Part shown: in pieces, positions 1-64,000 of the stretch
Position numbering within the stretch: the stretch's first letter is position 1
Layout of the letters: every line of letters begins with the position of its first letter
Source: a virus
IMG/VR virus record: IMGVR_UViG_3300047551_002099
Coordinates: 1-64,000 of that record
Length of the DNA stretch: 64,000 bases
Reading direction: 5' to 3' (one strand)
The notes under the pieces: model-generated
Told to the model about the DNA's origin: nothing
What the model saw: only the letters and a program-made list of their open reading frames with translations
Databases searched by the model: none
Translations under genes and position numbers: made by a program

Positions 1-1
1 A

Positions 2-13614: not shown

Positions 13615-14670
13615 ATGCCACTATCTATTGAACTTAAAAATGATAAGGAACTACTGGCAACAGACACTGTTGCTGGTAAAGAGTACATCAAAGCACCAAT
13701 TGCCCGTTTAGGTAAATGGAAACATGAAGCTTACGGTCGGGTTGAATTCTCCCAAAAAGACTTTGATGATATTACCACTAACTGGAAAAACAACGCTGCT
13801 GGATTTGAGCCTCCACTCTACCTAGGTCATCCCCGGAATGACAAGGCGTGGAGCGGCGCGCCTGCCGTTGGGTTTCTAGAAAACGTAGTTCAGGAAGGAG
13901 ATACTTTGTTTGGGCTTTACGAGCCGGTAGACAAAGAAGCCTTTGAGGAAGTTAAGAAGGGCCAGTACCGTTATGCTAGCTCCGAAGTTTATCGGAATGC
14001 TAAAGATAAAGAGACGGGTGCTGTGATTGGTACGCTGTTGACAGCCCATGCGTTAACAAACGAACCCTACTTGACTAAACTGCCGCGGGTGGAAGTAACC
14101 GAGAAGCTTGAATTTAGCAATCCTATTAACACTACTCGTTTTGTATTTTCTCAAGAATCAGCTACCTGTACAAAAGAGGTAGTAACTATAAATGCTATGA
14201 CACAAACCACCGAAGTTACGTCAGAAAAAGACACTGCTGCGCACGAACAGTTCGTGCAGCTGCAACACGAAAACGAAACCCTGCGACTTGAGCTTTCCGA
14301 TAAGAACAAGCAACTCGCAGATCTACAGGACGCTGTCGCTGCCATCAAACAAGAACTTTCCATTCATACCGAACGCGCCAAGAAGCAGGAACTTTCTGAC
14401 AAACTGGCCCGGTTGAATAAGCTGAATGTTTCTGCCGCGACCAAAGAGAAGTATTCCCAACTCTTTGCGGAAGGCACCCTTGATGCCACTGGTGAAGAAA
14501 ATATCTTTTCTTTGTTGGAAGAGTTATCTGCTGGTAACGTCCAAAAGTTCACCGATGTTCAAGGTGTTCAAGAAAAGTCTGAAGAGACCGCTGTTGAAAA
14601 CCCTTACTCAGAAACTATCCTTAAGCTCGCTGAGCGCGCCAAGGAGCTAGGTCGTGAATTTGTAATCTAG
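13615..14670 (+). CDS. Prohead protease / scaffold (Mu gpI-like)
   Basis: GKWKH, PPLYLGHP, APAVGF, GQYRYASSE, AHALTNEPY motifs of Mu-like protease; coiled-coil C-terminal scaffold; directly upstream of capsid gene. Confidence 0.85.
   Translation: MPLSIELKNDKELLATDTVAGKEYIKAPIARLGKWKHEAYGRVEFSQKDFDDITTNWKNNAAGFEPPLYLGHPRNDKAWSGAPAVGFLENVVQEGDTLFGLYEPVDKEAFEEVKKGQYRYASSEVYRNAKDKETGAVIGTLLTAHALTNEPYLTKLPRVEVTEKLEFSNPINTTRFVFSQESATCTKEVVTINAMTQTTEVTSEKDTAAHEQFVQLQHENETLRLELSDKNKQLADLQDAVAAIKQELSIHTERAKKQELSDKLARLNKLNVSAATKEKYSQLFAEGTLDATGEENIFSLLEELSAGNVQKFTDVQGVQEKSEETAVENPYSETILKLAERAKELGREFVI
14241..14257. promoter_or_regulatory. Palindrome GCACGAAC-A-GTTCGTGC (copy 1 of 3)
   Basis: Perfect inverted repeat with 1-nt centre; same 15-bp core at 25004 and 45286. 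Confidence 0.6.
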
Positions 14671-41700: not shown

Positions 41701-41739
41701 AGTAACGAATGGCTATTGGCTGGAGACCTTAAAGCATAG
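38728..41739 (+). CDS. Collagen-like tail fibre
   Basis: 1003 aa; multiple Gly-X-Y runs separated by repeated globular modules; C-terminal [16 protein letters not shown] fibre tip motif. Confidence 0.85.
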
Positions 41740-45302: not shown

Positions 45303-45962
45303 ATGCCTGAGTCTAACCCCTACAGTCCGATTCTGCCACCACCCCAACCTAGTATCTGGCCCGCTACGTCCGAGGCTCAAATTCTGCAGACGGTAGAAAC
45401 CCGGCTGACCTACACGCCTATTGTGGTTCAGTTCTTATCCCCAATTCTGAACGAAGACAGCTCCCCTTACACAGATAAACAAGGTAAGAAACGTTACGCT
45501 CTTCGGATTAGCTGTCCACCCAGCAACCGTCCCGGTGAGTGGCAGTACATCCCTGATAGTTATTACTATGAAATCCCTGACGATGGATTGCTACGGCTGC
45601 AGCTAGTCCCTTCTGACCGTTACTTGCCGATTGGACGTTATGTTGTAGAGTACTTCCGCATTGGTAAGAAGTTACCTGTCTTAACGCAGCGTTGGGTTGT
45701 TCCTAAACCCCCACCAATGGGAACCTATTCTTTCACTTATGAACTCCAACCTCCAATTCTTCCCGTAGATGTTTGGAAGGTTACCAGTGTTTCAGCAGGT
45801 TATGAATGGGTAAGTAACTACAACTCACTGACTTGGGGCACCCCGCCGGCGCTAGGTGATGTAGTTAACGTTCGCTACCAACGCGCGGTCACCCTTGATA
45901 AGTTAATTGACTATAGTTTGAATAACACTAATATTAAAGAAACTGACCGAGTTCGATATTAA
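45303..45962 (+). CDS. Hypothetical protein (Pro-rich, beta-strand)
   Basis: 219-aa ORF between terL and the giant gene. Confidence 0.65.
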   Translation: MPESNPYSPILPPPQPSIWPATSEAQILQTVETRLTYTPIVVQFLSPILNEDSSPYTDKQGKKRYALRISCPPSNRPGEWQYIPDSYYYEIPDDGLLRLQLVPSDRYLPIGRYVVEYFRIGKKLPVLTQRWVVPKPPPMGTYSFTYELQPPILPVDVWKVTSVSAGYEWVSNYNSLTWGTPPALGDVVNVRYQRAVTLDKLIDYSLNNTNIKETDRVRY

Positions 45963-45967
45963 ATAGA

Positions 45968-48900
45968 ATGATTCAGTACGAAACCAGCGTTGACGGTCGT
46001 CTTAAGTTTACACTCAACGACCAATATAGGGAGATAGCCCGTCAAGAGTCTGGTGGGAATATGTCGCTGCGGGGCACAACCAATAGGGAACAGAGTCCCT
46101 ATGGTGTGGTCGCTTATAAGCACGACACCCGTAAGTATAGTGATTTCGTACAGGGATTAGAAAATCTGGATGTAATTCAGTTTGCTGCACCGTTTAACAA
46201 CGTCCAGAAAAGTTTGTCTTCCCAGCCGAATATAGCTACCAACATACTTGAAAGTGCTTACGAAAACATTGGGTTAGTTCAGCGGATGTTCCCATCGGAA
46301 GTTGGGATGTTAATGCGTACAGGGAAGCTCAAGTCGTTGTTGCACGACCAAACCTACTTTAAAAGTACGGTGCAGCAACCCATTGGTTTTTACGACCAGC
46401 AGGAAACCGTTATAAAGAACCAATACCAAGCGTCCCGACACCAGAATAAAGATGGGTCTAACCCGTTGATTATTGGACATGACCCTTTAGAGCTGCAGCA
46501 CGCCAAAAGTACGGAAGGGTTATATTCTAAAGAGCGTTATCAGCAGATTAAAGAAGAGTTTGCGGCTAAAGGTTTAAAAGAGCCTGTTCCTACTGGTAAA
46601 GCGCAATTCACTGGCGCGATGTTTACAGACTTAGCTGTTGGTGGGCTGTCTTTGAGTGGTTCCGGTGGGGTTCTTGGTCAGTATGAAGACTACTCCATTG
46701 GGTTTGAAAACCCAACAATTGTTGATTGGATTAGCGAATTTAGAAAGACTGGTCTTGAGAAGGAATATTTTGTACGTGAATCAGAAGCCGCCCGCGGGGT
46801 TAAGGTCACTGGTAACTTGTCTATTTATGAAGAGCGCAACAAGCAACTTCGAGACGTTGCCGAAATTCTTAAAATCGTAGACCCCAAAGGTGAAAAGGGT
46901 CTAGCCCAAATAACCGTTGGTAGTCCTTCAATGGACTGGAACGAGTTTGCCAGAGACTCTAGTTCTAAGGATGCCCGTCAGAAACAAAGCGTAGGCACAT
47001 TTATTAAGTTGCTGCAAGAAACCGCTAAGTACGGCTCCAAGAACGTTTTGATTATGGACCCCAGCCGGATTAACATCCCGGAGAATGAACAGCGCCGGCT
47101 AAAACGAAGTACATACATCGGAAAGTCCATTCGGGGTAAAGCGCAGCATAGCAACACGATGGGTATTACAATGCGGCCCATCACAGGTTTAACCCCAGAG
47201 CAAACAAAACTACTTGAAGCCAAAGGGCTGTTGGAGAAAGCGAAGACCGGCGTCCATACGTTGAACGTAGGTAACGCCCGACCAACAGGTAACTACTCCA
47301 TTAACCAGGAGATAATTATTGACATGAACAAAGCGGACGCTGCTACCCGCGCGGGCGCAGCTTTCATTGAAGCAAACATAGCCGCTAGTCATGTCGCGTT
47401 CTTACCCCGCCGGGATATCGCTAAAGAAGGAATTGCAGGCTCGATGCTGCAGCAGTTCTATATGCCCACTTTTAAAGACTCTCAAAAGAGTGGTTTTACC
47501 CAAGAGGGCCTGTTACCGAACATGCCCTTATCTATGCCCCAGTCGTTCTTCCGATACTTCAAACCAGGGACTAGAACTCATATCTATAGCGACCGGTATC
47601 GAGCGCTAACTGGAAAGTATGCTACAGGGCTCCAAGGGGATGTGCTACGGGAGTTAGACGCTAAGTTAAGCGACCCTGGGCCTGGAAATCAGATTAACTA
47701 CTTCCTGCGGCAGCGTGACTTATACGAGCCAGGCAAAGGCATAATCGGGACAGCTGCTGCCACGGTTGGTCGGTTTATTGATACAGCTACTGGTTTTTAT
47801 ACCATGCAGGCCATCAAGGCGCGGGAGTCTGGTCAGTTAGGGGGTTCGTTAAGAGAGCTATACGAAAAACGCCAGTACGACCCTTACGACCAAACAGAAA
47901 ACCGTGGGTTCTTTGAAAACTTATTGACTAAGACAGCTGGGACGTTATCTGCCACGACGACGGCTATGGCGGCTTACTTTGGGGTAACCCATGCTTACAC
48001 CATGGCGCGGGCTCAGATCGAGCAGGTCGGTGTGGATTATGTACTGGAGTCTATTGCTAGAGGGCACACAGAAGGAGTCAAGAGTTTATTTATTACCCAA
48101 TTACTAGACCCATCGCACCAGGAATTAATCCTAGGCGCTAGCACTATTTATAACGCCGATATTCCCCACCTGACGGTGCGTAATACCGGTACAGCTATGG
48201 AAGCTTACTTCAATTTAACTGTTAACCGAAGCTTACAAGCATTACAACATACACAATATGCAGGAATAATCACTGACGAGATGATTGAAGCTGTAGCTTC
48301 TAGTGACACCTTCGGTGACTTTGTCATAACTGATAGTAATGTCACTCGGCTCAACAGCCAAATTATGGGGGATTCTTTTGAAGCGGTTATGGACCCCACC
48401 AGCAATAAGCGGACGATGGCAGCAGTGGTGACTCGTAAGTTGAGTCAGAAACTGGCTGCTTTACCGGAGGGTGCGGTTATTAGCGAAAGTACTATCACGC
48501 CTTTGATTGATGACATCTATAAAGAGATGGGTATCGACCGGCAGTCTGGTTTGATTGATTTGGGGCGGGGTACAGATAGCCTTGACATTAAACGGGGAAC
48601 TCAACCCGCTGGCTTTAGTAATCTAGCTGGTGTGCGCCGAATGGACTCTAGCAACCTGCAGCACATGTTTCTGCCCTTGCTAGATGACATGGTCTTTGAC
48701 AAGGGTGCTAAGAAATATCAATCAGCCAAACAGAACTTACTACGGCTGGCTCAGTCAACCCCTGCGTTGACTTATAAGAATACTGCCAATAACATCGCCG
48801 CGGCGTCCGACCTTCGTATTTATAACTATGGTTATGAGCGGATGCGTCAGCTGGCGGAAGTCTTTGACGAGTTAGCAACCCACCTACCTGCTAATCCGCT

Positions 48901-51900: not shown

Positions 51901-54900
51901 AGGCGGACCCAGCCAAAGTGACATGCAAGCGGTGTCCAGCCCAGAGCTGCAAATGGCATTAACCAGACGTTATGACCGTCTGCGGAACTTGTCTTGGCAG
52001 ACTTCCGGTGAGTTAATGATGGATGTAATCGGTGAGTTCCAGCGGTCAGGACGGATTATTAGTGATTACCGAGATGGACGAATTGACGGAACGCCTCTGA
52101 ACAAAACGACGGCAGCCGACACTATGATCTACGATACGTTAGGAAAAATGCGTATCGTTCCGATTGGGTCTGACGGGTCGTTCCGTCTACCGAAGAAGAC
52201 AACAGAGCGGGACTTGCTGAAGTTTATCAGGACAATGACCGCGCAAGGAGCTGGCTTTGGTGAAGGTGTTCGTCTAGAAGCATCGGAAGACCCAGCGGAT
52301 ATCATGTACGGACGTAGTCAAGACCGGGGCGGTATTCCTGTTCTAAGTTACTTTGGTGGATTGTTCAACTACGCTTTCAATAGTTTTTACGATAAAGACA
52401 CTGACCTTTTAACTCCTGATTCTAGTAATATTGTCGGCGCTACGTTAATGGCTGGTTCCGCGCTAGTGTTGGGCGCATCGTTTATTGGAACTTCAGTTTC
52501 AACCGTGATTCAATTGGCTGGGTCTTTAGCCGCGTTGTCAGAGTACGGCACTATTAGCGATGCTAAGACTAGCGTTAGAGACTTACGGATGTCCGTGGTC
52601 AAGAAGCTTAAACAAAGCTCCTTTGCGTTGAGCAGTGGGGGAGGGCCAGCTATCATTCGCCCGCGGGCACATGGGTATAGCCGGGTGTTAACTCCAGCCC
52701 ATGATATTGCTGAAGAAACGCTTGAGCAAATTAACCTTAAGTTTACGGGTAATACAGCGTTCAATAGATACACCAGTGGTAACGCGCTGGAAACAATCGT
52801 CACTGAAGAGTTTGGTAATGTCTCCCGTAAGTTAGCCAACCAGTACTCTACTGTAGAGTCCCTAAGCGACTTTATTGTTCAAGAAGTAGACGTTCTGAAC
52901 GCCCAACTGGGCGACCAACTTAACGTCGTTGTGGGTGGTGAATCGAAGAGCATCGCTAGCATCTTCACTCCAGGCAGTGAAGCAATCCAAGGAATTGACT
53001 CAAAAGCCTTGACAGAAATAAACCAGATTTTGGTTAGCGGTAAACATAAACAAACTCAGGCCCTGGAAATCGAACGTGTGTTATTAAACTCGTTCCACCG
53101 TAACTTGGGTTTAATTACCGCTGAAGGACAGTTTGTTAACGATGGTAAGCTTCCTGCGCACCAGCAGAGTGCTAAGACTCAGTACGCAAAAGAAGCAGCT
53201 AAACAAGCGGTTGAGCAACAAGCTGCTGCTTTGACTGGCGAAGTAACCCCGACTTATGACCCGTCGATAGGCTTCCTACGCTCGAAGATTCAAGAAAAAG
53301 GTTATAGCGGTTTGATAGCGGAAGGAACCGGCGGGGCTTTACGGGCAGCCGGTGAGTTAATCAACCTTAAAGCGTATTACGAAGTTCTATCCTATACAGC
53401 AGCAATGGGAACGACTGACCAGTTTGAGCGGCGCCGGGCGAGTCAAGCGGCGGCACAAAACACCGTTCAAGCCTTTGGTTTGATTATCCCCATGCAGTAT
53501 GCGTTAGGTGCTGTCCGAAGACATCCGGCTATTGCAATGACTGTTGCCTTAGGCGCAGCGGTTGCCGGTGGGGTTGCGTTACAGAACAAAGGGTTCCGCC
53601 GCTTCTTGGAAAAAACTACTCGCCCGGTTTTCTCTTTCTTAGATACTTACGCTTATAAACCAGCGGTACAAGGTTTAGCTGGTATGTACGAAGGGCTTGC
53701 TAAGTTTACTCCGCTACCCCAACTACTTCGTCCAGTTACGGCTATATTTGACCCTATCTTCAGCGGTATGCGGCGGGCTGTGCAAGACGACCCGGCGCTA
53801 AGTATGCTGGCTAACTTCTTTGTACCAGAAGGGGTAGAAGACTTTTACCGCCGTAACGCGCTTTTAAAGACTCGGATGACGCCTTGGGGTGACTCCTACG
53901 AGATGTACTCTAAGGCAGAGGTAGGCCAGTACCGAGCAGCGCGGTTAACAGCTAAGCGTAGACGGGCTCGTACCGCTCAAGCTGGAATTGATGAAGACTT
54001 ACTCCATCCGTTTTTAATGGGGCGGTCGGCGGATGTCCAATCCATTTCGTTGTTTGAAGAGCGGTACCTAGGCGGCGACGGGCGGATTATGGAGCAATTC
54101 CAAACGGAGCGCTTAACCAGCAATTTAATGATGATGGCTATCCGCCGCCGTCAGGGCCTGGTTGACCAACATGTTGGAGGTAGTTACATGCGTCAGCCTT
54201 ACTATAAAGAGAATGTTCACCATCACTTCGCTACGGTTGCTGCTTTAGGAACATACAGCTACGCCCAGACGGGTGACGTCTTCTCCGCACCGGTTAACCA
54301 GGCAACGCGTGGACTAGAAAAATTGTATAACCTACATGCTGAAATAATGAATCGGTTAGGCCCAGAGGCCGGGCCTATTATTAAACGCACGCTAGCCGGG
54401 GCTGCCCTTGGTTACTTAGCCGGGGCCCAGTTTAGTCATTTTGGTGAGACGGAAGATGAACGCCGGCGTAACGCTGCCATCGGTGGACTTGCTGGTAGCG
54501 CTATTGGTGGCAGTACCACGTTATTCCTAGGCCCCCACTTTGCCGCGCGAACGGAGTATATACTAAGCCGACTAGGGCGTAATCCTTTCTTTAGAGGTAT
54601 TGCTGGAAAAGCTGTGGCTTTTGGTAGTGCGGTCGGTAACGTAGCTAAAGCAACCTTCAAAGGTTTAGGGGCTTTTGCTAACAAATCTTTCCCTTACGCT
54701 AGTTTCTGGGGGTTATCTACAGCTGCGACTTACAGCAATTATGACGCTGCTGTAAATTGGGTGGATGGCGAAGACCCCGCGAAGAAACATCCTTTATATA
54801 ATCCTTGGGTTAAGTTAGGTATCTCGACTGGGGTTGGAGCGGTGGTAACTTTAGCTGGTTACGGCGCTGCTGGAAGTCAGTTTACTTCAGGGGCCTTAGC

Positions 54901-57900
54901 GGCTGGTATTGGTAAATCAGCAGCCGCTTTGGGCACAGCCGGAGGGTACGGAGCTAACTGGTTGTTGTCTTCGTTCTTAATCAACTTTATGTTGAGCAAC
55001 CCTTATACTGGGGCGGCCCCCAGAGCGTTGGCTAAAACGATTTATGACCGTTTTGGTTTAGGTAGAGATGAAGACTTTGGGAACTTCTATAACACCGGTG
55101 TTCTAACTTCAGCCGCGGTAGTTGGTAGTGTAACTCCTTGGCTATCCCAGAAAACCCACGAAGATTATATAACTAGACTGCAAAGACAGCTGGGTTATAC
55201 AGACGTTGACGCTGACGGTCGGGCTCAAAGAGCAGTTGCTGAATTGGATGAACTAAAACGAGTACTTGCTGCGGTAGAAGGAACCAGCGGTGCTGTGGTT
55301 GCAGCCAGCCCAGAAAGTAAACTACAGCAGTTAGGTATAGCTCCACTGGTTGGCCCTTATAACCACGAATACGTTGATGAGGTAATTCAACAAGGTATTG
55401 CTGAGAAGCGTGGTCGGATGTCTTTAGTGGAATCGCTTATCGATGCTCAAGTCCAGCGGGGCTTCTTACATAACACTTTGCGTAGCACTAAAGGTATTCT
55501 TAAAGCAACAGGGCATATCGGAACGTTGGGTTTTGGTTACGTTCTGAAAGGTTTAGCAAAGACTCGTAGGAACTTGGGTCTTGGATTTACAATAATGGGC
55601 GCCGGTACAGCTGGTGGCTATCTATTCAGCCAGCTTACTGCTAATGATACTGATAGCGGGGCTCAATTAGAAACAACAGTTAGTACTTTAGGTGGGACTT
55701 ATATTGCAGCAGGATTATACGGAGCCTTTGGTCGCCACCCAGACCAAGTAGACGTGGCAGGAACTCAAGTTATTCAGAGGTTAACCAACTGGTATACTCA
55801 GAAGTTCGGCGCAGGGCCTGATGCACCAAGATACCAACCGTTTAGAGCGGCATGGCGAAGCTTACCTAGAAAGTTCCGTCGCAATACGAGGTATAACTTT
55901 AATCGTGGGTGGACTTGGCTCAAAGAGCGATTCAGAGACCCCCGGAGCAGCGAAGCTTTCCCTGATGGGTTTACCTTTGGTCGGTCTAACTTTGGACAGC
56001 AGTTTATGCAACTCAAGGATAAGGCCCTGCCCGTTGCTGCGTTTTCGATTGACGTGCTTAACCTCTACACCAGCACAAGCCAGATTAATAACCTAAAATA
56101 TGCTCGCTCCCAAGCCGATTTTATGAAGGCCTATAGCAGCTACAGCTCGGTGGTTGCTACGACAACGTTTACATCGTTAATGTCACTCTTTGCACGGAAC
56201 GCGTCGTTTAGTTCGTTTGCGATGTCAACTTTACAGATGTCCCAAATAAGCTACGCCGCTGGTATGCGTCGTTCGGATTACGAGTACGCTAATGCGGTGG
56301 ACGACCCCACAGCATTCCAAGCAGATAAGCAGAAAGACTTTCTTATGGCCGGGGGAGTCGCCGGATTGTCTTTAGTATCCGCTGCAACTAGTTACGCTAG
56401 AGCCGGTAATCAACTACCTTTCCAGAGTAGAATTGCGGCGACGTTGGGTAGACGGGTACCGTTTGTTTTACAAGGGGGAAGCAAGTTTGCTGCAATTGCT
56501 GACTTTGCCGCGCTACCAGTGGCTCAGACAGCTGTGACCGGTTACGAAATCCAGCGGATTGCTAGCGACCGCAATCAGAAGTTTGGTTATAGTACGAACG
56601 TCGCAACAGACGCCGCACGAAATCAAGTTGACCTTTGGGCAGCGTTTCTGTTTTCTGTGAGCGCAATGGCTTTGTCTCGTCGACCAACTACTAACTCGGG
56701 GTTATGGTTTGGTAAGGTCATTCCTGGTCTTACCACTGGGGGTGTCGCCTTAGCTAAAGACGCCTTTGTACCCAGGCTTCAATACAAACTTACGGAACGA
56801 TTCAGAGAAGCGGGGATTACCAATACCTATGCTCAAAACGTAATTACGCGTAAAGCAGCCAAGAGCGCCAGTGATAACTACTGGCTGACGCTAGGGTTAA
56901 GCACTGCTGCCGCAGGTGCAATCTTTGTTCTAAGCAGAGGCCGGGCTAGCAAGCCAATGCTACTTTCGTTGCCGGCTGTAACAACAAGCGGTGTTGCATT
57001 GTATAACTACGAAAGCACCTTAAGTTCAGAAATAGAAAAGCGTAAAGCTGCTGGTTTGGGTGGGCTTACTAAAGACGATATGGTTGCCTATCGGGAATGG
57101 CAACAATCCGGTGCTATTATCCCTGAAGCGTGGAAAGACAGTAATCAGTATCGTAACTGGATGATCCACCGTAAAGACCAACAGCGCCGTTGGGATAACT
57201 TTTCAGCAAACTTCTTCAAATCGAACCGGTCGTTCGAGGGTCTGGGTACACAGCGGATTCAGAATGATTGGATGATTTCAAAAGATGTGTTGCGGGCTAA
57301 CGCTGAAAAAATGCACTCCAAAGCCTTAGGTAAGTATGAGTCTAACCCTTGGGCTACTGGTAGCGCTGTTGCCGGTGGTGGGGTGTTACTTGGGATGATG
57401 CTCCGCGCCCAACCCCATAGAATGGATGGTTTGGCTGTTGGGGAGAGCTTCTTAGATAAGAAGCATATTGGAAAGTTAGCTAAGTTCGGTATAGGGGAGT
57501 TAATACTACCAGCGGTAGCAGTAGCACGTAAACTTTCTACGGATGCTGAAATTAGAAAATTAGCGACTCGGTCGCTGTCACCAGATGTCGATGGGGAGAT
57601 TCAATTCGCCCGGGCGTCAGCGGATATTTCTAGAATGCGGGACGTTGTTTGGCAGGAAACCTTACTGGCACAGATGCCCCTTGGCGGCCAGAGCTTGTTA
57701 GGGCGGGTAACCCGACACGCTGTTGCACATGGTATTGGCAAGGTTATCTTTGACTTTAATCTCAACCCAATGCTCTTGGACTTAGAGCAGAAGGAAATGT
57801 TGAAGTACGTTAGAGAGTCAAGAGATAAAAATCTACTAACAACAGAAAGAATGCAGCGGGCATTGAAGGCTCAAGCAAACACTAATGCTGGCACTATCCC

Positions 57901-60900
57901 GGCGTTGGGCCTAACAGCACTACAAATGATCGCTACAGGACGAACCAACCCGATGCTACTGATAACTGGGTTTAAAGATTCTGTGCTCACCTACGTTGGT
58001 GTTAAAACAGCTTTACAGTCTGCCATTGGTAAGAAGCGCGCGGTGAATGTTTTACTCAACAAAGGCAATACTGTTACAGGTGCTGTACCTGATCCGACAG
58101 GAGCGTCTAACATTCGCGCTGCTGGTGTTAGTAAAGAAGACGAAGAAAGTAATATCGTCAGTGACTACTTTACTAACCAGTTTATGCTGACTACAGCCCT
58201 GCCCAGACTGGTGCCGACGTTGGTTGGAGCAGGGTTGTCGATGTGGCTTAACCGGCGGGCTTGGAAACATATGAAGGGTGCTACAGCAAAAGAGGCTCCT
58301 AAAGTTGAAGTTGTAGAACCTACTCAGTTACCCGTAGAGCCTGAAATTGTAACGCCTAAACCCCCGGGTGGAACAGCTAGCAAAACGATAACTACGACTG
58401 TACATGGTGAGCCTGGTGTCACTGTTGGGCCTAGTGAACCATTAAAACCCGTTAGTACTGAAGCAGTAGTCGAGCCTGTGAAACCGGTTCAACCTACGCC
58501 TCCAGCGCCCACCGCCAGTCCTAAACCACCGCAAATAACACCTACGGTTGAGCCAGTCGTTTCTGCTGAGCCGCCGCCGGTCGCTAGCAGACAGGTTATT
58601 AGTAAAGTAAATCCTGACGTAATTACGTCTTCGGGTGAATCTGGTTCGGTTGGCTTGGAAGAGCAAACACAAAATCTTTTGAACCAATTGAGGCAACAAG
58701 ACTCTAACCCTACTGGAATTAATAAATCTAAAGCTGCTCTTAACACAATTAATAACACACCGGTAGAGACAAGACAAACTGTGGCTCAAGTGACTATACA
58801 ACGAAGCGTCCACAGCACCGAAATGGATTCTTTCATATTAGACACGCCTGACCAAACTAAAATAGAAAAGCTTGTCAATCAAATGCGGCAAGTGCAGACG
58901 GCGTTTAATTCCCTTTCTGGACAGCTAGAACCAGTTATAAGACAAAAGACTGGAAAAGATGCTGCTCAAGGAGTCATAGATGTTTGGCAAAAACGAATTG
59001 ACCAGCTCGTTGAAAAAATTAGCGCTAGCACTACCAATTATGACGCGCTTACTACATATTCCCGCTTCTTAATTGAACTAGAAGGGTCGTTCTTTATGGA
59101 AGGCAACGACCATTTTTCACCTTTACATCAAGGTAAAATTGGTGGGCCTGTCAGTGGTTTTGGTCAGGCGAATCTAGCTTTACTTCAATCCGCCTTAAAG
59201 GCTCCGTTTGTTCAATCTCAACAACTTGCTTTTGACTTATACGGCTTATCCCCAACGCAAGACTTTACCCCCGGCATGCCTATGCCAAATGATACTATGG
59301 GGCTATGGGTATTTGGTTATGTGGAAGGTTCTGGAGTTGATGGGTCAGGCAAACGTGATGGGGGCGTTCGTTGGAATAGCGAAGCTGGAACGAGCAGTAA
59401 TTTTGTTACCTTATTAAATAGAGGGTATCATATCAACTTGTATCCAATTATTCCCGCCGAAGTTGTGACGACTAAGCCAATATCAGCACCTGATATTAAG
59501 CCCGCTCGGCCAGGGCAAAGTCGTAGGCTAAAGCGTAATTATATCTCTCCGCGAGGAGTCAAGATTAATAAATATAGAGACCCTGACTCTTTTAGACAGC
59601 AACAAGCTTCAGAGGCACAATCTTTAAGCTCGGAGAAATTACAGGCCAATCGTTTAAACAGCGCATCGAGTGGTAGTGTTAATGCTAACTCTATTAATAA
59701 GACCTATTTAGAAACATATAAAGAGTCAAAACGGCAGGCCCTTTCAACTGCTAAAACATTTGTTTCTACTTTAAGCAACAACGAGCTTACTGATTTCATT
59801 GAAGATATGAAGTCTTCAGTTGAAGAACTTCGGTCTAAGGGACTTAGCAACCTCAGCTCTGACGAAGTAAACACCTATGGTCTATATAGCGGTAATCTTC
59901 AGGCTGCTCAACTAGACCAGCGACGACGTCAACAATTGAAGCCAAAGTCTCAAGCTGTTGAAATATTTAAGCATATTAGAAATAGTGTTACACAGGATGC
60001 TTTTAATTATGTAATCACTCTAAACGACAGTGATTTGGATTCTTTTATTGACGAGACTCAAGCTAAAGTGTCTCAGCTGCAGCAAAAAGGCTTTAATGCC
60101 TTTACGTTAGAAGAAGCAGCAGACTACGGTATGGAGGTTGGTAGGTTGCGTGTGGCTAAAGCTGCAAAAACTCATAGGTCTTTGGAAGACAATACTAGTT
60201 CTACTAAGTCAAGCAGTAAGCAAGTTATTAACAAAGTAACTAATCCTGAACCAACGCCTGCCCCTACTGTAACCACGCCGCCAGCCCCTGAGCCTATAGG
60301 GCCTGGTAAAATTGAAACTGTTGCTTCAGCACCGGAGATTACACCTAAGCCTTTAGAACAACCTACTCCGCCAATGTTGATGGATATGGTCTACGGCAAG
60401 GCTAAAGAAAGCGTCACGGGCGTCATCAGCAAAGCTAAGGAGATTGGGCAACCCTTCGTGTCTAAAGTGGGTCAAGTCGCCCGGGGTACCGCCAACCAGG
60501 CTTGGGACGGCTGGACTATTTTCGACCGCTTAGAAGGTGTAGACGCCCGCTTTGGTAACCAAGGTATCGGCGGTGGTGCCGGTTTTTGGACTCGCTTTGG
60601 TCAAAGCGCTAAGTATGAACTCAGCGGTAGAGGGATTGTTGAAGGTGGTTTCGGGATTGGTCGGAACGCTCAAACTGGCAAGGTTGGTATCCAAGGCAAA
60701 GGCGGCGCGATGGCAGTGGCTGGGATGGGGCTACAACTAGCCGACGACATCTTAACCTTAGACTGGAGCCGCAAGAACTTTGCGAAGTCGTTAGGTACGG
60801 TAGCGAAGAACCAAGCGACGTCCTTGGCGGCTGGGGTGGCCTTCGGGTTGGCTACTGCTGGTCTGGGGGCCTTAGCGCTGTCTTCTGTCCCGGCGTTAGC

Positions 60901-63900
60901 GGCTTTAGGAGTTGTCGGTAGCGCTGCATTAATGGGTTACGGAATCTACTCGCTAGCTGACCAAGGCTTCAAGGTTGGGGGTAAAGCCTGGGAGAAATTC
61001 GTCCTGAAGCGGAAGCGGACGGTAGAAGAACAGAAAGCCTATGAGCAACAAAGCCAAGTGTTATCAATGGGCTTTGGCGTTGGGACTTTTGTCTATGCTG
61101 GCTACAACCAAATTAAGAGTCTTCAGGGGGCTCGTCAAGCGGCTAGCGTAGTCAACCAAGCACCGGTCGTTCCGACTGTTCCCGTTCGCCAGGCAGTAGA
61201 TGTAATAGATGATGTCGCTCCGAGAGCCCCCGTCAGCCCGGCTAGAAGTGGGGCAGTGCTAAAGACCGCTGTACCGGCTGCGGTAGCCACCCCTAAACCG
61301 AATATGCTTGGAGCCACTGGCAAGAGCTTTGCGCGTAATCTAAACCCTCGAAGCTTAGTTAAGAACCCTCTAGCTTGGCTGACTGTCGCAGAAGCCGGTA
61401 TAGGGGCGGTAGATGATATGTACGTTAAGAAGAAGTCTTGGCAAAAGACGTTAGTCAACCGGGGCGGACAGCTAGCCTTCGGTTTGTTAGCTTCTGCGGC
61501 AGTAGGGACAGCAATGGGGGCTCTGGTCGCCCTCGGTGTAATTACAATGCCGGCATGGTTAACTACCGCGTTAGTTATCGGTGGGTTAGCCGCAACAGCT
61601 TGGGCAGTCGCTCCTCAGGTGGCTAGTATCTACGGCAAGGTTAAAGAAGACTTCTCGAGTCAGCTAGAGGATAGTAAGACTATCGCTAGCAGAATGGACC
61701 TTAATTCTAGAGAGCAAGCTTCGGCTCGTATCTCTAGTAGCGTAGCGCTCCGGTCGGATGCGACGACCTCTATTAAAGTAAACGCCCGCGCTAGCAGAGA
61801 TTTTGTTGGGTACGGCGATCGCCGAGGTGCTAATAAAGAGTTAGACTTACTTGGCTCGCCAGTAGCTGAATTTTCCCCTATTCCACACGTTCCGCTGCCC
61901 TCCTCACAGCAAGTTATTAATCAGGTTAATAAACCTAATAGAACTACACCTGCTGTAGTCCCAATTAAACCACGCAGCCAGCAAAATATAACTTTTATAC
62001 ATAAAGAGTCTATCTCTGACTCTGACGTACAAGGTTATCTTGTCGGCAAAACGGTAACTAGGGATTTCGATAATATTACTTATGACAACTCCGGATTTAA
62101 TACTGCTTTGTACGAGGGCGCTCGCTACAGAAAAGGTTCTATTTCTGGTGCCGTTTATTTAGGTCCATTAGGAGTCAACAGTAGTAATGCTAAAGGAGAG
62201 GGTTTTGCTAGGTATTACGATAAAGATTCTAAGTATCAGTTTGAGGTTGATACTAAAACCAATAAGATATTTAAGATATTCCCTTCTGGCTCGAAGAAAA
62301 CATTATCTTTACCTACTGGGGTGGAGTTTATACAGACTACGGAACCTGGTGTTACTAATACAAGAAGAATTATAGAAGAGATAAATAATAGCAACCGGCG
62401 TGTTGTCGGCATTATCGGACATGGATTTTTAACGACAGGCTATTCAACCTACCGGCAGAAGGATGGTTCTTATAAAGAGGCTCGTATTGGTAAAGAGGAA
62501 GCTTTACGTATGAGTGGTGTTTACGTTGACGCTAAAGGTGTGACAAATATAGTTCACGGGTTAACAGAAGAGAAGCTGGCTCAGCTTAAAAGAGATAAAG
62601 TCAAGTCGGTAAGTTTATTCGGTATAAAGCCTGTAGAGAGCGGTAAACATAGGTATAACCGAGCGTTCCTGGTAACTAGTAAAAAAGGTGAAGTCCAATA
62701 CGTTTACTTACCGCAAGAAGTTAGACACGAAGATACCCGGAAATACATTAAAAAACAAGTTCCTAACTACAAGGATATTGTTCAGTTTGATGGTGATACC
62801 TTTGCTGGCTATAGTTTAACTGATCCTAAGACAGGTAAGGCAGTACCAGAATCTAGGGGTAAAGTTCCTTATATGTGGGCTCAACCTATATTTCTTACAG
62901 TTCCAGATTCTTCTGTCCGTAAGAAAGATAGTTCTTCTAAGGACAACTCTTTAATAAGAGAAGCCGCTGCTAATAGAATAGGAGAGCTTAAGTCAGAGAT
63001 GACGGAAGAAAAGCTAATACAAAAAGGTTACACAGGCACTAAATTAGAGGCGGTTAAAGTGCTTCAGGGGTTGGATTCAGACCTCGCCGCGGGTATTGCT
63101 TATCTTTACGGTGACGTGGCTAGAGTCAATAAAGCTGATTTACTTAACCCAGATATTCTAAATGAGGCTTTAGGTAAGCCGTTAGCCTCTATGTTTTCTA
63201 GGGGGGCACAAAAAGTCTGGACGAGTGGAAAAGAATGGCTTTCCGGTGTAGGTCAATCTCTAACTAACTCTTTAACAAGGGCACCTATTATCGGAGACCT
63301 ATTCTTTACACCCGCTGCTAAAGCTGGAGAAATCCCTTACGACTTAATGAGCCAGCGCCAACGTCAAGAGGCAGTTGACAAGGAAGTCAAGCGGCGTTCT
63401 GCTGGCAGTCAATATAACCTGAAAGCTATCCAAGGTAAAGAACAGAAAGTTGCTAAGCAGATAGAACGCCCGCGGGCTTGGTGGCGGTCGGAGGACGAAG
63501 AAGTACCGTGGTGGCAGAAACTCTTTAATTTAGCCGCCGGGGCTGTCAGTGTGACTATCAGTGGTATCGGTAGTCTTTTAAAAAGAACTTGGAACTTCCT
63601 TTACAAAACTGGGGCTTCTATCAGTCAAGGTCTTTCCCAAGCTTTGGGAGGGGTTGCCGGTGAGGTAATGGGCCCTGCTGGGATGATAATGCCAGTTATG
63701 AGTGCTTACCAACCTAACCTTACGCCTGAGTTTAGAGAAGCCATTAACAAGACAGCGGCAAATATCGGCATACCGGCTGAGTGGTTAATTGGTATTATGG
63801 CTTTTGAAACTGATGGTACGTTTAATCCAGCTGAGCCCAACAAGATGGGTAGTGGCGCGACCGGACTAATTCAGTTTACGCCTGCAACGGCACGTAATAT

Positions 63901-64000
63901 GTTCGGTAAATCGACAGCGGAGATGGCTAAGATGAGCCAAATTGAGCAGTTAAAGTATGTAGAAAAGTACTTTAAAGCTCAAGTCGGTAAGAAAAAGTTA
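45968..64000 (+). CDS. Giant (>6010 aa, runs off right edge) tape-measure/ejection-like virion protein: degenerate PLD domains, hydrophobic helices, glycosidase-like and lytic transglycosylase domains
   Basis: ATG 45968 (MIQYETSVDGRL...) just after the previous stop; same frame reads open at 64000 (..EKYFKAQVGKKKL) and no stop-terminated ORF is listed in the track. SLT motif WLIGIMAFETDGTF..GSGATGLIQFTP.TA..MSQIEQL.YVEKYF at 63780-63975. Confidence 0.88.
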   Translation, partial: MIQYETSVDGRLKFTLNDQYREIARQESGGNMSLRGTTNREQSPYGVVAYKHDTRKYSDFVQGLENLDVIQFAAPFNNVQKSLSSQPNIATNILESAYENIGLVQRMFPSEVGMLMRTGKLKSLLHDQTYFKSTVQQPIGFYDQQETVIKNQYQASRHQNKDGSNPLIIGHDPLELQHAKSTEGLYSKERYQQIKEEFAAKGLKEPVPTGKAQFTGAMFTDLAVGGLSLSGSGGVLGQYEDYSIGFENPTIVDWISEFRKTGLEKEYFVRESEAARGVKVTGNLSIYEERNKQLRDVAEILKIVDPKGEKGLAQITVGSPSMDWNEFARDSSSKDARQKQSVGTFIKLLQETAKYGSKNVLIMDPSRINIPENEQRRLKRSTYIGKSIRGKAQHSNTMGITMRPITGLTPEQTKLLEAKGLLEKAKTGVHTLNVGNARPTGNYSINQEIIIDMNKADAATRAGAAFIEANIAASHVAFLPRRDIAKEGIAGSMLQQFYMPTFKDSQKSGFTQEGLLPNMPLSMPQSFFRYFKPGTRTHIYSDRYRALTGKYATGLQGDVLRELDAKLSDPGPGNQINYFLRQRDLYEPGKGIIGTAAATVGRFIDTATGFYTMQAIKARESGQLGGSLRELYEKRQYDPYDQTENRGFFENLLTKTAGTLSATTTAMAAYFGVTHAYTMARAQIEQVGVDYVLESIARGHTEGVKSLFITQLLDPSHQELILGASTIYNADIPHLTVRNTGTAMEAYFNLTVNRSLQALQHTQYAGIITDEMIEAVASSDTFGDFVITDSNVTRLNSQIMGDSFEAVMDPTSNKRTMAAVVTRKLSQKLAALPEGAVISESTITPLIDDIYKEMGIDRQSGLIDLGRGTDSLDIKRGTQPAGFSNLAGVRRMDSSNLQHMFLPLLDDMVFDKGAKKYQSAKQNLLRLAQSTPALTYKNTANNIAAASDLRIYNYGYERMRQLAEVFDELATHLPANPLMWIKPIREVFAGSPTTGATTEQTIEHGAITTTRASFKDLIGPGFTGLINIQGEIVREVGRSMKVGLTQQLKDKFELLQTSRAVERSEADLVKQVARHGDVESFINTIWGNDVGDSMFLGHVNRQRRYNQLLRNQRKDYDELLNADTANPAFSGLRKALLGVGTVMIVDRLFDAYVLRPQGVDYFDSVMSDVIGSRSPKAGSEEDAKWQSLYDTEYSNAIPSIIKYPAAAAGFFVGGHLLPSYEATDSLVYEAVSKKYGVAAVNTLMSEAAGAASDDVADALRLSPKVIRSKFGTAGALLGASAALIGSQLAVNYLSAISKPVIRGLDNLFGGRWREEESGLDVDPVKGTAASALANIVQYSVQRQSVNYQKGWGATAEDKTDVYLLNLAAQGLMQSRSKPTQMFYPFATQIASPFFQFATVAKVDPGKNIIQLNTGFQLFPLLGAGLMLPSPITPKVQYTAPLSNRAIANYLKNYPEGIIMPGQPSTMAQHQETEAFVNMQELSKTGSMLLGGGVNLSFDGKPLVYMAMLGAASEFAKSGVDRFLAYKAEEQKWLYEKRQPLYRELQNYETLFHAGRVGLDTLDRVSRAAYSLSVIMPNYLAKAGSAFLGASGGTMHQLGPFARKAAPFALAFGLLGASFRLNDKAMESELPNYSRLQTMFKQKQYEGLTHEMIKADAINIGQVFVGTGLLGTTILSTGAFESARSFGNAYNIVEAGGPSTYIQRQKHKLYSMWLEHLQNQGEVLMPSLEGQTVTSLSKRSVATAEQALGVYGEINQAVGRAGQMQRRHLMKAASQIDLPLIRTAPTRLAMAARRVAPVMVGALAVAQVLATTEGFKDSPWLSLLKNFTSTGSSEYSSEQRAMLTKLGINQPRYQPKNLGDAFNNVRDYVVSSALLPFGGNTFGVYQDNPNPFSPIIGPLGLSLGSEDEARVYSQSQSVAADISGSLYLMPAMTNELANAMNLGPLLSYAKKLEKRPGAASLAKALIRGAGLRTKAAKFKGGPSQSDMQAVSSPELQMALTRRYDRLRNLSWQTSGELMMDVIGEFQRSGRIISDYRDGRIDGTPLNKTTAADTMIYDTLGKMRIVPIGSDGSFRLPKKTTERDLLKFIRTMTAQGAGFGEGVRLEASEDPADIMYGRSQDRGGIPVLSYFGGLFNYAFNSFYDKDTDLLTPDSSNIVGATLMAGSALVLGASFIGTSVSTVIQLAGSLAALSEYGTISDAKTSVRDLRMSVVKKLKQSSFALSSGGGPAIIRPRAHGYSRVLTPAHDIAEETLEQINLKFTGNTAFNRYTSGNALETIVTEEFGNVSRKLANQYSTVESLSDFIVQEVDVLNAQLGDQLNVVVGGESKSIASIFTPGSEAIQGIDSKALTEINQILVSGKHKQTQALEIERVLLNSFHRNLGLITAEGQFVNDGKLPAHQQSAKTQYAKEAAKQAVEQQAAALTGEVTPTYDPSIGFLRSKIQEKGYSGLIAEGTGGALRAAGELINLKAYYEVLSYTAAMGTTDQFERRRASQAAAQNTVQAFGLIIPMQYALGAVRRHPAIAMTVALGAAVAGGVALQNKGFRRFLEKTTRPVFSFLDTYAYKPAVQGLAGMYEGLAKFTPLPQLLRPVTAIFDPIFSGMRRAVQDDPALSMLANFFVPEGVEDFYRRNALLKTRMTPWGDSYEMYSKAEVGQYRAARLTAKRRRARTAQAGIDEDLLHPFLMGRSADVQSISLFEERYLGGDGRIMEQFQTERLTSNLMMMAIRRRQGLVDQHVGGSYMRQPYYKENVHHHFATVAALGTYSYAQTGDVFSAPVNQATRGLEKLYNLHAEIMNRLGPEAGPIIKRTLAGAALGYLAGAQFSHFGETEDERRRNAAIGGLAGSAIGGSTTLFLGPHFAARTEYILSRLGRNPFFRGIAGKAVAFGSAVGNVAKATFKGLGAFANKSFPYASFWGLSTAATYSNYDAAVNWVDGEDPAKKHPLYNPWVKLGISTGVGAVVTLAGYGAAGSQFTSGALAAGIGKSAAALGTAGGYGANWLLSSFLINFMLSNPYTGAAPRALAKTIYDRFGLGRDEDFGNFYNTGVLTSAAVVGSVTPWLSQKTHEDYITRLQRQLGYTDVDADGRAQRAVAELDELKRVLAAVEGTSGAVVAASPESKLQQLGIAPLVGPYNHEYVDEVIQQGIAEKRGRMSLVESLIDAQVQRGFLHNTLRSTKGILKATGHIGTLGFGYVLKGLAKTRRNLGLGFTIMGAGTAGGYLFSQLTANDTDSGAQLETTVSTLGGTYIAAGLYGAFGRHPDQVDVAGTQVIQRLTNWYTQKFGAGPDAPRYQPFRAAWRSLPRKFRRNTRYNFNRGWTWLKERFRDPRSSEAFPDGFTFGRSNFGQQFMQLKDKALPVAAFSIDVLNLYTSTSQINNLKYARSQADFMKAYSSYSSVVATTTFTSLMSLFARNASFSSFAMSTLQMSQISYAAGMRRSDYEYANAVDDPTAFQADKQKDFLMAGGVAGLSLVSAATSYARAGNQLPFQSRIAATLGRRVPFVLQGGSKFAAIADFAALPVAQTAVTGYEIQRIASDRNQKFGYSTNVATDAARNQVDLWAAFLFSVSAMALSRRPTTNSGLWFGKVIPGLTTGGVALAKDAFVPRLQYKLTERFREAGITNTYAQNVITRKAAKSASDNYWLTLGLSTAAAGAIFVLSRGRASKPMLLSLPAVTTSGVALYNYESTLSSEIEKRKAAGLGGLTKDDMVAYREWQQSGAIIPEAWKDSNQYRNWMIHRKDQQRRWDNFSANFFKSNRSFEGLGTQRIQNDWMISKDVLRANAEKMHSKALGKYESNPWATGSAVAGGGVLLGMMLRAQPHRMDGLAVGESFLDKKHIGKLAKFGIGELILPAVAVARKLSTDAEIRKLATRSLSPDVDGEIQFARASADISRMRDVVWQETLLAQMPLGGQSLLGRVTRHAVAHGIGKVIFDFNLNPMLLDLEQKEMLKYVRESRDKNLLTTERMQRALKAQANTNAGTIPALGLTALQMIATGRTNPMLLITGFKDSVLTYVGVKTALQSAIGKKRAVNVLLNKGNTVTGAVPDPTGASNIRAAGVSKEDEESNIVSDYFTNQFMLTTALPRLVPTLVGAGLSMWLNRRAWKHMKGATAKEAPKVEVVEPTQLPVEPEIVTPKPPGGTASKTITTTVHGEPGVTVGPSEPLKPVSTEAVVEPVKPVQPTPPAPTASPKPPQITPTVEPVVSAEPPPVASRQVISKVNPDVITSSGESGSVGLEEQTQNLLNQLRQQDSNPTGINKSKAALNTINNTPVETRQTVAQVTIQRSVHSTEMDSFILDTPDQTKIEKLVNQMRQVQTAFNSLSGQLEPVIRQKTGKDAAQGVIDVWQKRIDQLVEKISASTTNYDALTTYSRFLIELEGSFFMEGNDHFSPLHQGKIGGPVSGFGQANLALLQSALKAPFVQSQQLAFDLYGLSPTQDFTPGMPMPNDTMGLWVFGYVEGSGVDGSGKRDGGVRWNSEAGTSSNFVTLLNRGYHINLYPIIPAEVVTTKPISAPDIKPARPGQSRRLKRNYISPRGVKINKYRDPDSFRQQQASEAQSLSSEKLQANRLNSASSGSVNANSINKTYLETYKESKRQALSTAKTFVSTLSNNELTDFIEDMKSSVEELRSKGLSNLSSDEVNTYGLYSGNLQAAQLDQRRRQQLKPKSQAVEIFKHIRNSVTQDAFNYVITLNDSDLDSFIDETQAKVSQLQQKGFNAFTLEEAADYGMEVGRLRVAKAAKTHRSLEDNTSSTKSSSKQVINKVTNPEPTPAPTVTTPPAPEPIGPGKIETVASAPEITPKPLEQPTPPMLMDMVYGKAKESVTGVISKAKEIGQPFVSKVGQVARGTANQAWDGWTIFDRLEGVDARFGNQGIGGGAGFWTRFGQSAKYELSGRGIVEGGFGIGRNAQTGKVGIQGKGGAMAVAGMGLQLADDILTLDWSRKNFAKSLGTVAKNQATSLAAGVAFGLATAGLGALALSSVPALAALGVVGSAALMGYGIYSLADQGFKVGGKAWEKFVLKRKRTVEEQKAYEQQSQVLSMGFGVGTFVYAGYNQIKSLQGARQAASVVNQAPVVPTVPVRQAVDVIDDVAPRAPVSPARSGAVLKTAVPAAVATPKPNMLGATGKSFARNLNPRSLVKNPLAWLTVAEAGIGAVDDMYVKKKSWQKTLVNRGGQLAFGLLASAAVGTAMGALVALGVITMPAWLTTALVIGGLAATAWAVAPQVASIYGKVKEDFSSQLEDSKTIASRMDLNSREQASARISSSVALRSDATTSIKVNARASRDFVGYGDRRGANKELDLLGSPVAEFSPIPHVPLPSSQQVINQVNKPNRTTPAVVPIKPRSQQNITFIHKESISDSDVQGYLVGKTVTRDFDNITYDNSGFNTALYEGARYRKGSISGAVYLGPLGVNSSNAKGEGFARYYDKDSKYQFEVDTKTNKIFKIFPSGSKKTLSLPTGVEFIQTTEPGVTNTRRIIEEINNSNRRVVGIIGHGFLTTGYSTYRQKDGSYKEARIGKEEALRMSGVYVDAKGVTNIVHGLTEEKLAQLKRDKVKSVSLFGIKPVESGKHRYNRAFLVTSKKGEVQYVYLPQEVRHEDTRKYIKKQVPNYKDIVQFDGDTFAGYSLTDPKTGKAVPESRGKVPYMWAQPIFLTVPDSSVRKKDSSSKDNSLIREAAANRIGELKSEMTEEKLIQKGYTGTKLEAVKVLQGLDSDLAAGIAYLYGDVARVNKADLLNPDILNEALGKPLASMFSRGAQKVWTSGKEWLSGVGQSLTNSLTRAPIIGDLFFTPAAKAGEIPYDLMSQRQRQEAVDKEVKRRSAGSQYNLKAIQGKEQKVAKQIERPRAWWRSEDEEVPWWQKLFNLAAGAVSVTISGIGSLLKRTWNFLYKTGASISQGLSQALGGVAGEVMGPAGMIMPVMSAYQPNLTPEFREAINKTAANIGIPAEWLIGIMAFETDGTFNPAEPNKMGSGATGLIQFTPATARNMFGKSTAEMAKMSQIEQLKYVEKYFKAQVGKKKL

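Follow-up and report, generated by a model that had tools for sequence, protein, structure and literature searches.

Among the described systems closest to the gene considered here, the pre-ejectosome of the cyanopodophage A4 consists of gp26–gp29 (PDB 9k2v; PMC12002296), of which gp28 is stored in the capsid and carries both lytic transglycosylase (LT) and M23 domains (PMC12002296). In phage N4, gp52 and gp51 build an outer-membrane complex and a periplasmic tunnel, and the polymerase vRNAP (gp50) then follows; vRNAP has been described as a "beads-on-a-string" protein that is proposed to traverse a channel of 30–45 Å in an unfolded or loosely folded state (PMC13434306). P23-45 gp96, from a phage with an 800-nm tail, comprises 5,002 amino acids (aa) and joins an N-terminal RNA polymerase (RNAP) to transmembrane (TM) and metallopeptidase regions (PMC10770324), and work on the Anabaena myophage A-1(L) indicates that the tail-tip proteins of cyanomyophages bear several wall hydrolases (PMC10966104). 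Here we describe a gene of IMG/VR virus record IMGVR_UViG_3300047551_002099 that begins at position 45968 on the plus strand of the 64,000-nt stretch analyzed (the window) and encodes a single protein of 7,866 aa, hereafter the giant, and compare it with these systems.

Like podophage ejection proteins, the giant is predicted to be alpha-helical with membrane-inserting segments, and, like T7 gp15/gp16 and N4 vRNAP, it is free of cysteine (Cys). Unlike them, it is one 7,866-aa chain rather than three proteins of 150–1,700 aa, and its virus is contractile-tailed; its storage in the capsid is a prediction.

At a probability of roughly 0.55, we interpret the giant as a virion-borne protein of a jumbo contractile-tailed, cyanophage-like virus that is ejected through the tail, breaches the envelope, and forms a conduit, rather than serving as a tail ruler. 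This interpretation is favored because the LT of the giant is homologous to that of the capsid-stored A4 gp28, which also carries M23, as do relatives of the giant; because the order of large terminase subunit (TerL), small partner gene, and giant closes the structural operon, and the homolog gp120 of phage Ma-LMM01 is co-expressed with terminase and tail genes; because this giant and a second, RNAP-like giant of the same virus appear complementary, the former envelope-directed, in parallel with the pairing of gp51/gp52 and gp50 in N4; and because linkers separate the modules of the giant and modules are exchanged between relatives. The sequence-only reading had proposed a head-packed cargo or a processed polyprotein that builds a trans-envelope channel; for the general idea of a virion protein that passes the tail and opens or builds such a path, the absence of Cys, the membrane-type segments, the LT homology, and the co-expression of gp120 lend indirect support.

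From these features we infer a sequence of events in which the giant would be expressed with the packaging and tail genes and enter the particle, together with or via its ~210-aa partner, most likely at the portal–tail axis or in the head, and would stay loosely folded in the manner of "beads on a string." Upon sheath contraction, it would leave through the ~4-nm tail channel with its C-terminus leading. The C-terminal string of enzymes (LT, lysozyme-like, degenerate M23-like, and DPBB/RlpA-like) would then cut peptidoglycan, the Gly/Ala-rich hydrophobic helices and glycine zipper would insert into membranes, and the conserved ~2,300-aa all-alpha core would assemble the conduit through which DNA and the second Cys-free giant, RNAP-like and without membrane segments, would pass. 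Once delivered, the chain may be divided into working pieces by its two SprT-like zincins. If the giant is ejected in this way, it would represent the route by which a contractile-tailed jumbo phage crosses the cyanobacterial envelope, clearing the way for an injected polymerase-like giant.

An uninterrupted reading frame and its family

In an open reading frame (ORF) listing that retains open ends, the giant ORF runs from the ATG at 45968 to 64000 (+) without a stop (6,011 aa, 3′-open), as the sequence-only reading had described; the ORF track does miss this frame, as that reading had also observed, solely because the frame runs past the window end. The IMG/VR record is linear and 79,810 bp long, with the window comprising its bases 1–64000, and record coordinates are identical to window numbering. 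On the full record the frame continues to a stop at 69566–69568, for a total of 7,866 aa. An in-frame stop precedes the gene at 45944, and the start codon lies 5 nt past the preceding gene. The open frame is far beyond chance, because stops are abundant in the two alternative frames and because the protein is conserved at 47–56% identity over 4,200 aa. The gene would occupy ~11% of a ~216-kb genome, and its product is, to our knowledge, among the largest single phage proteins known, as compared with 5,002 aa for the P23-45 tape measure protein (TMP) and 3,500 aa for N4 vRNAP.

Beyond its unusual size, nothing favors an assembly or gene-calling artifact, whether from chimeric contigs or from several genes read through as one, and we give this explanation practically no credence. 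Two runs of one freshwater metagenome yielded Logan contigs that each cover 45500–64000 in one piece (at 23x and 53x), with 0–2 substitutions, no indels, and no joints relative to the window; their sample is probably the source sample of the record, so that they represent an independent assembler and not independent DNA. Among RNA datasets, none was listed as containing the window. An identical copy of the protein is present on two JGI contigs, colinear orthologs of 6,860 and 6,943 aa were recovered from separate assemblies, and the homologs in cultured phages (2,898–2,899 aa) are annotated as single coding sequences (CDSs). The giant ORF is a real gene. Single-base differences at 61627 (T>C) and 61670 (G>A) occur in Logan run X1 only and are absent from run X2 of the same sample, which suggests strain variants in the second hydrophobic module or just past its end.

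Querying 1.84e9 representatives with aa 1–1200 (HMMER) recovered 29 clusters, nearly all of them giants of 3,200–7,900 aa. With the inclusion of Ma-LMM01 gp120 and MaMV-DH01 ORF143 (genus Fukuivirus), the family spans ~2,900–7,900 aa. Against the hidden Markov model (HMM) of the core module, gp120 (YP_851134, 2,898 aa) scores 57 bits in two colinear segments, and ORF143 (2,899 aa) scores 54 bits. The link to Ma-LMM01 is visible by family HMM only: tblastn of aa 1–3000 against 50,697 GenBank phages returned no match. A search for related loci with single-protein queries returned none.

The cultured homologs share with the giant the gene order of terminase, an ORF of ~211 aa, the giant, and then reverse-strand genes (gp118, gp119, and gp120 in Ma-LMM01), as well as the core-module matches and a complete absence of Cys; gp120 additionally has seven hydrophobic segments. 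They differ in being 2.7 times shorter and in that similarity is confined to the core module, at ~25–30% identity with one motif block at 50%. No HExxH motif was seen in gp120, of which no domain-library scan was made. On the basis of synteny, the core module, and Cys-freeness, we assign the giant to an uncharacterized gp120-like family. We found no paper giving this family a function, its members being annotated only as "hypothetical protein." With gp120 included, this is a widespread freshwater family that is open to experiment, since Ma-LMM01 and MaMV-DH01 are cultured on Microcystis.

The closest relatives extend this comparison over much of the chain. Over its first ~4,200 aa, the giant aligns colinearly with its three closest relatives (56, 47, and 34% identity). 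One relative, G001 (IMG/VR 3300035670_000008), is a 96%-complete genome of 216,563 bp with the same gene order, and it encodes the 6,943-aa ortholog.

Cysteine avoidance and the companion giants

None of the 7,866 residues of the giant is Cys. Elsewhere in the record, with the second giant excluded, proteins contain 139 Cys in 14,404 aa (~1%), a rate at which ~76 would be expected in the giant; from position-specific base composition, the expectation is ~130 Cys codons, and TGY codons number 188 and 362 in the two alternative frames. The pattern is shared across the family, with 8 Cys in the 136,507 residues of 29 representatives. Among control proteins, for which Cys counts were taken from GenBank records, the large ones that are translocated through a tail are uniformly Cys-free: lambda gpH (0/853), T4 gp29 (0/590), T5 Pb2 (0/1219), P23-45 gp96 (0/5002), T7 gp15 (0/747), T7 gp16 (0/1302 for the first 1,302 aa), and N4 vRNAP (0/3500). 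Neighboring proteins that are not translocated do contain Cys, including T4 gp27, gp48, and gp54 (2, 1, and 2, respectively), T5 Pb3, pb4, and Pb6 (4, 3, and 1), and T7 gp13 (3).

By analogy with these proteins, we take the absence of Cys in a protein this large to point very strongly to translocation through the tail channel. Cys is likely avoided because disulfides arising while the particle is outside the cell would prevent the protein from unfolding and being threaded. We found no paper in the literature stating a Cys-free rule for tail-translocated proteins; such a zero-Cys rule could predict ejected proteins from sequence alone. Neither Pro/Gly content nor the length of Pro-free runs separated TMPs from capsid-stored ejection proteins.

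The second giant lies at the opposite end of the window (2..9217, −). It comprises at least 3,072 aa here and 5,112 aa in G001, lacks Cys in both, and has no hydrophobic segments; a GDYDGD motif is located at aa 3816 in the G001 ortholog. Features of the two proteins suggest that the second giant is RNAP-like and that the envelope-directed features all reside in the giant studied here, and the second giant is probably an injected partner cargo. The two were also considered as possible paralogs; blastp found no similarity between them, and paralogy is not supported. A third giant, encoded in G001 (103066–115785, −), is 4,239 aa long, matches Dda-like helicase, polynucleotide kinase, and GTPase-like proteins, and contains 57 Cys, providing an internal contrast to the two Cys-free giants.

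These counts also bear on whether the giant is a non-virion protein acting on the envelope from within the infected cell, in lysis, superinfection exclusion, or envelope remodeling. Muralytic domains and membrane segments would fit lysis proteins as well, the expression class is middle/late, and the case for virion presence is indirect. However, Cys absence is the pattern of tail-translocated proteins, as opposed to the 57 Cys of the cytoplasmic giant of the same lineage; the N-terminus has no signal-like hydrophobic start; the gene is strictly linked to TerL and the partner where the structural operon closes; and an ejection protein carries a homologous LT. We know of no lysis protein of such giant length, and we consider an intracellular role very improbable. 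In Ma-LMM01, gp120 belongs to expression class B5 together with the terminase gp118, gp119, and tail genes, being silent at 0–1 h and high at 3–6 h (PMC5780444 supplement).

Modular architecture

The portion of the giant conserved across the superfamily is a core of ~2,300 aa (47465..54367, +; aa ~500–2800), whose modules matched 20–27 of 32 members by blastp. Alignment columns for the motifs RGFFE, YFGVTHA, IPANPxxW, LIGPGF, YQDNPN, and DISGS are sharply conserved. An AF2 model of one core piece (aa 481–1200; 47408..49567, +), built from an 18-sequence alignment and covering 720 of the 7,866 residues, is nearly all alpha-helical, with helices of up to ~50 residues (pLDDT 64, pTM 0.49). Structural comparison of this model with the PDB (Foldseek, VIA-align) returned no significant match and only generic helical hairpins, at a model pLDDT of 64. 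Sequence searches were similarly unproductive: phmmer of aa 1–4678 against the PDB returned nothing but one chance match (0.043), the ESM Atlas yielded no usable match for aa 1–2046 (best score 0.83), and no PLD domain was found by Pfam in aa 1–2500 at E ≤ 0.01. Comparison of the giant with itself (self-blast) did not find internal repeats. The second part of the colinear N-terminal block (54365..58507, +; aa 2800–4180) is conserved in the closer subfamily only.

Besides a glycine-zipper 2TM domain, the giant has five to seven hydrophobic segments distributed along its length, and every member of the family contains comparable ones. The first, a TM-like, Gly/Ala-rich segment (52430..52519, +; aa 2155–2184; KD19 ≥ 1.6), is conserved in the family, with invariant columns G2157...G2185. 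A second TM-like segment follows (53525..53584, +; aa 2520–2539), and the glycine-zipper domain begins just past the core (54389..54514, +; aa 2808–2849; PF05433, E 1.6e-5, above the curated cut-off). The hydropathy scan further identified a TM-like hairpin (60821..60934, +; aa 4952–4989), which lies within an exchanged module (aa 4803–5101), a double hydrophobic segment (61472..61612, +; aa 5169–5215), and a last segment at aa 7725–7745 (+).

From aa ~4180 onward, the giant is modular, with Pro/Gln-rich linkers between successive modules. By sequence reading, the first Pro-rich linker (58505..58597, +; aa ~4180–4210) opens this mosaic "beads-on-a-string" C-terminal half, and further Pro/Gln-rich linkers are located at aa 4758–4800, 6728–6750, and 6900–6922. 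The LT (63713..64180, +; aa 5916–6071) straddles the window end and retains an E-T-D-G motif; its PDB matches include 9udh_A (3e-28) and 9k2v_E, the A4 ejection protein gp28 (7.8e-16), and its PHROG matches are phrog_196/4928/21656. Downstream are a sub-threshold and probably degenerate M23-like module (aa 6115–6207, +), a lysozyme-like module (aa 6290–6510, +) that is common to five relatives and in P0004 falls within a region recorded as PF18013, and a second M23-like stretch 3′ of the lysozyme-like module.

These are followed by a DPBB/RlpA-like domain (66290..66577, +; aa 6775–6870), identified by Pfam (3e-12) and by similarity to PA4485 (9e-11) and to the A-1(L) hub (1.8e-5), and by two SprT-like zincins (+) recognized by Pfam and by HExxH motifs (HEYLH at aa 7057, HEYTH at aa 7339). 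Past the zincins are three PG[HS]RP..TGNY repeats and the final hydrophobic segment, and the protein ends in a conserved helical tail, with identities to the two closest relatives of 74% and 52% across the last 300 aa. Pfam recognizes in the giant only the glycine zipper, DPBB_1, and the SprT-like domains. The sequence-only reading had placed hydrophobic helices at about 52430–52540, 54390–54990, 60820–60960, and 61470–61620, where hydropathy and Pfam do locate segments, and had noted cell-wall enzyme domains near the window end, which agrees with the position of the LT and with the DPBB/RlpA-like and lysozyme-like modules beyond it.

The DPBB domain is homologous to the "endoglucanase"-like domain of the A-1(L) hub gp15 (PDB 8kea; PMC10966104). 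In A-1(L) such enzymes reside on an 899-aa hub, whereas in the phage studied here they are carried by a separate giant outside the tail module.

Comparison among relatives shows that wall-degrading and zincin modules, joined by Pro-rich linkers, make up the C-terminal half and have been shuffled. Two modules are far more similar to the G001 ortholog than is the core (47%): aa 4803–5101 (60374..61270, +) at 93% identity and aa 6544–6951 (65597..66820, +) at 82%. This discrepancy points to recent cassette recombination between diverged phages. The LT was seen in no other family member, yet it is 40–50% identical to LTs of unrelated phages, and the domains of close relatives include M23, VanY, and a beta-lactamase fold; P0009 likewise carries an M23. 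Exchange may reach the other end of the protein as well: P0015, a family member of 3,529 aa, carries a staphylococcal-nuclease (SNase) domain (aa 41–148) before the conserved core, which suggests that the N-terminal end in this family bears exchangeable, cytoplasm-directed effectors. The shuffled wall-hydrolase cassettes offer a natural catalog of envelope-breaching enzymes.

Such an arrangement invites comparison with polyvalent proteins, for which Iyer et al., in 2017, reportedly predicted capsid packaging and delivery with the DNA; their hallmark cytoplasmic conflict domains are said to include MuF, ArdC-N, SNF2, methylases, ART, and others. The giant resembles these proteins in the presence of many unrelated enzymatic domains in one chain, a zincin-type metallopeptidase, and, in the family, variable effector modules such as the P0015 SNase. 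However, Pfam finds no hallmark conflict domains in the giant, its predicted enzymes target the envelope, and a huge helical core dominates the chain.

The same linkers and zincins could be taken to indicate a polyprotein precursor, cut by the prohead protease or by its own zincins into many virion or ejection proteins and never functioning as one chain. A prohead protease gene is present in the record (13615–14670), autoproteolytic release has reportedly been proposed for polyvalent proteins by Iyer et al. in the same work, and enzymes comparable to those of the giant are encoded separately in the tail module of Microcoleus phage My-WqHQDG. However, we were unable to define any cleavage sites, and the N-terminal block of 4,200 aa is colinear, without obvious linkers. 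Self-processing cannot be a trait of the family as a whole, given that P0002 and P0003, the closest relatives, lack the zincins. A polyprotein would also be compatible with ejection rather than exclusive of it; as an explanation in its own right, we find it doubtful.

Genomic setting and the question of a tail ruler

The giant gene is the last of a plus-strand structural operon that encodes, in order, a portal, prohead protease, major capsid protein, 1,198-aa sheath, tube, and 1,061-aa hub-like protein, for which phmmer against the PDB found nothing. The operon then continues with a 628-aa protein bearing an N-terminal gpV/gp5-type OB-fold, gp25-like and gp6/J-like wedge proteins, a collagen-like fiber (38728–41739, +; 1,003 aa), TerL (43481..45262, +; phrog_17415, phrog_2), a conserved 219-aa partner (45303..45962, +), and the giant; reverse-strand genes lie 3′ of it. 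The fiber matched 48 PHROG families through its repeats. The order of TerL, a small ORF (~180–330 aa), and the giant at the end of the structural operon is observed in 11 IMG/VR loci, G001, Ma-LMM01, and MaMV-DH01; for most of the distant members, contexts come from 13 IMG/VR loci only. Wherever annotated, TerL also precedes the partner–giant pair elsewhere (L032, L033, L036, Ma-LMM01, MaMV-DH01).

The partner gene ends 5 nt before the giant, and a homolog (35–87% identity) lies directly 5′ of the giant in all 11 of the IMG/VR loci examined. Its AF2 model is all-beta, with two predicted beta-sandwich domains (pLDDT 68), and Foldseek found no significant match between this model and known folds. 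An HMM of the partner did not match Ma-LMM01 gp119 (211 aa). In two loci (L029:6610–7587 and L032:8283–9278), the partner carries an extra beta-rich insertion of ~150 aa near the N-terminus and is 326–332 aa long, as compared with ~210 aa.

This setting bears on a further alternative, that the giant is a true TMP residing in the tube lumen, where it would set tail length and then be expelled as a channel in the manner of T5 Pb2 or P23-45 gp96. The giant does share with those proteins the lack of Cys, a largely helical character, hydrophobic segments, and C-terminal muralytic and metallopeptidase domains, along with, by our interpretation, expulsion through the tail. All of the TMPs tested are Cys-free, and the tail-module proteins of 1,061, 628, 786, and 365 aa all contain Cys and are not TMP-like. 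The 1,061-aa hub-like gene lies directly 3′ of the tube gene, and no ruler candidate was recognized in G000 or in G001, in which the other large proteins are fibers, Ig-repeat proteins, or a helicase.

However, the giant gene lies outside the tail module, 20 kb downstream of the tube and hub genes and after TerL, a placement shared by every relative in which TerL was annotated. No TMP family of Pfam (PF10145, PF20155, and others) was found in the giant or anywhere in G000/G001, though many true TMPs match none. There is no chaperone with a frameshift, and the upstream partner is predicted to be all-beta. The giant also differs from P23-45 gp96 and T5 Pb2 in coming from a myovirus rather than a siphovirus, in lacking sequence similarity to them, and in that the RNAP-like function appears to reside in a separate giant.

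Length provides a further test of the ruler alternative. A-1(L) obeys a rule of 0.15 nm per residue, with a 689-aa TMP and a 104.5-nm tail (PMC10966104). At this ratio, the 2,899 aa of MaMV-DH01 ORF143 would correspond to 435 nm, as opposed to the 230–260 nm measured for its contractile tail (PMC9927357). The full 7,866 aa of the giant would correspond to a tail of ~1.18 µm, the contraction of which would drive the tube several hundred nm, or about the width of a small cell; the figure of 0.9 µm given by the sequence-only reading had been computed on the truncated length. Family lengths, moreover, shift through the swapping of globular enzyme cassettes. By simple arithmetic, a chain would occupy ~1,030 nm3 and the lumen would offer ~12.6 nm3 per nm, such that 3–6 copies would exceed a lumen of ~250 nm. 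The giant thus resembles, in predicted function, both ejection proteins and multifunctional TMPs, departing from the latter in gene position and, in a cultured homolog, from the length rule. The earlier judgment that it is not an ordinary tape measure is supported by its position after TerL and by the disparity in MaMV-DH01, with no TMP family match seen, and we consider the ruler alternative unlikely.

Several observations weigh against an ejected, envelope-breaching role. We found no virion proteomics, electron microscopy, or genetics for any family member, and the core could not be linked, by sequence or by the fold of its modeled piece (aa 481–1200), to T7 gp15/gp16, N4 gp51/52, or A4 gp26–29. 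The TM predictions come from a simple hydropathy-window scan and not from a dedicated predictor, and the M23-like modules look degenerate. The Cys-free pattern is itself not absolute: a single Cys occurs in T7 gp14, and a disulfide links A4 gp26 and gp27 (PMC12002296). Finally, no other tape measure was identified in the 96%-complete G001, which leaves the ruler role vacant and either Cys-free giant able to fill it.

Ejection could also be carried further. More tentatively, the giant might constitute a single-chain "mega-ejectosome," in which one 850-kDa polypeptide replaces a multiprotein ejectosome, and perhaps the tape measure too, threading the tail and building the conduit for the 5,000-aa Cys-free RNAP-like giant, with Cys avoidance as a general, sequence-only marker of tail-channel passage. 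We hold this extended version to be possible, though it falls short of being the expected outcome.

Other features of the structural genes were also observed. The 628-aa spike-like protein (28280–30166, +) and a 786-aa tail-module protein (31888–34248, +) have Gly/Asp/Ile/Leu-rich C-terminal ends of the type GDIGN(I/F)I, and Ma-LMM01 gp098 (1,177 aa), at the equivalent position, contains a similar Gly/Asp/Ile/Leu-rich stretch. These ends could represent lumen- or membrane-facing parts, or a real ruler.

The capsid protein is 27–30% identical to those of Microcoleus phage My-WqHQDG and of the Ma-LMM01 group of Microcystis phages. My-WqHQDG (OR578706) contains at 1–7869 a partial CDS of 2,622 aa that is Cys-free and shows no blastp similarity to either giant, and the beta-lactamase-fold, amidase, LytH, and M23 enzymes of its tail module are separate genes. 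A "moraphage" paper (PMC12619734), considered as a potentially relevant system, concerns another lineage.

TerL adjoins the end of the tail-fiber block rather than the portal. In two distant relatives (L033:4862–7807 and L038:120–3065), TerL is 982 aa long and includes an HNH-endonuclease-like insert (phrog_7545 and others), which may be an intein or a homing element.

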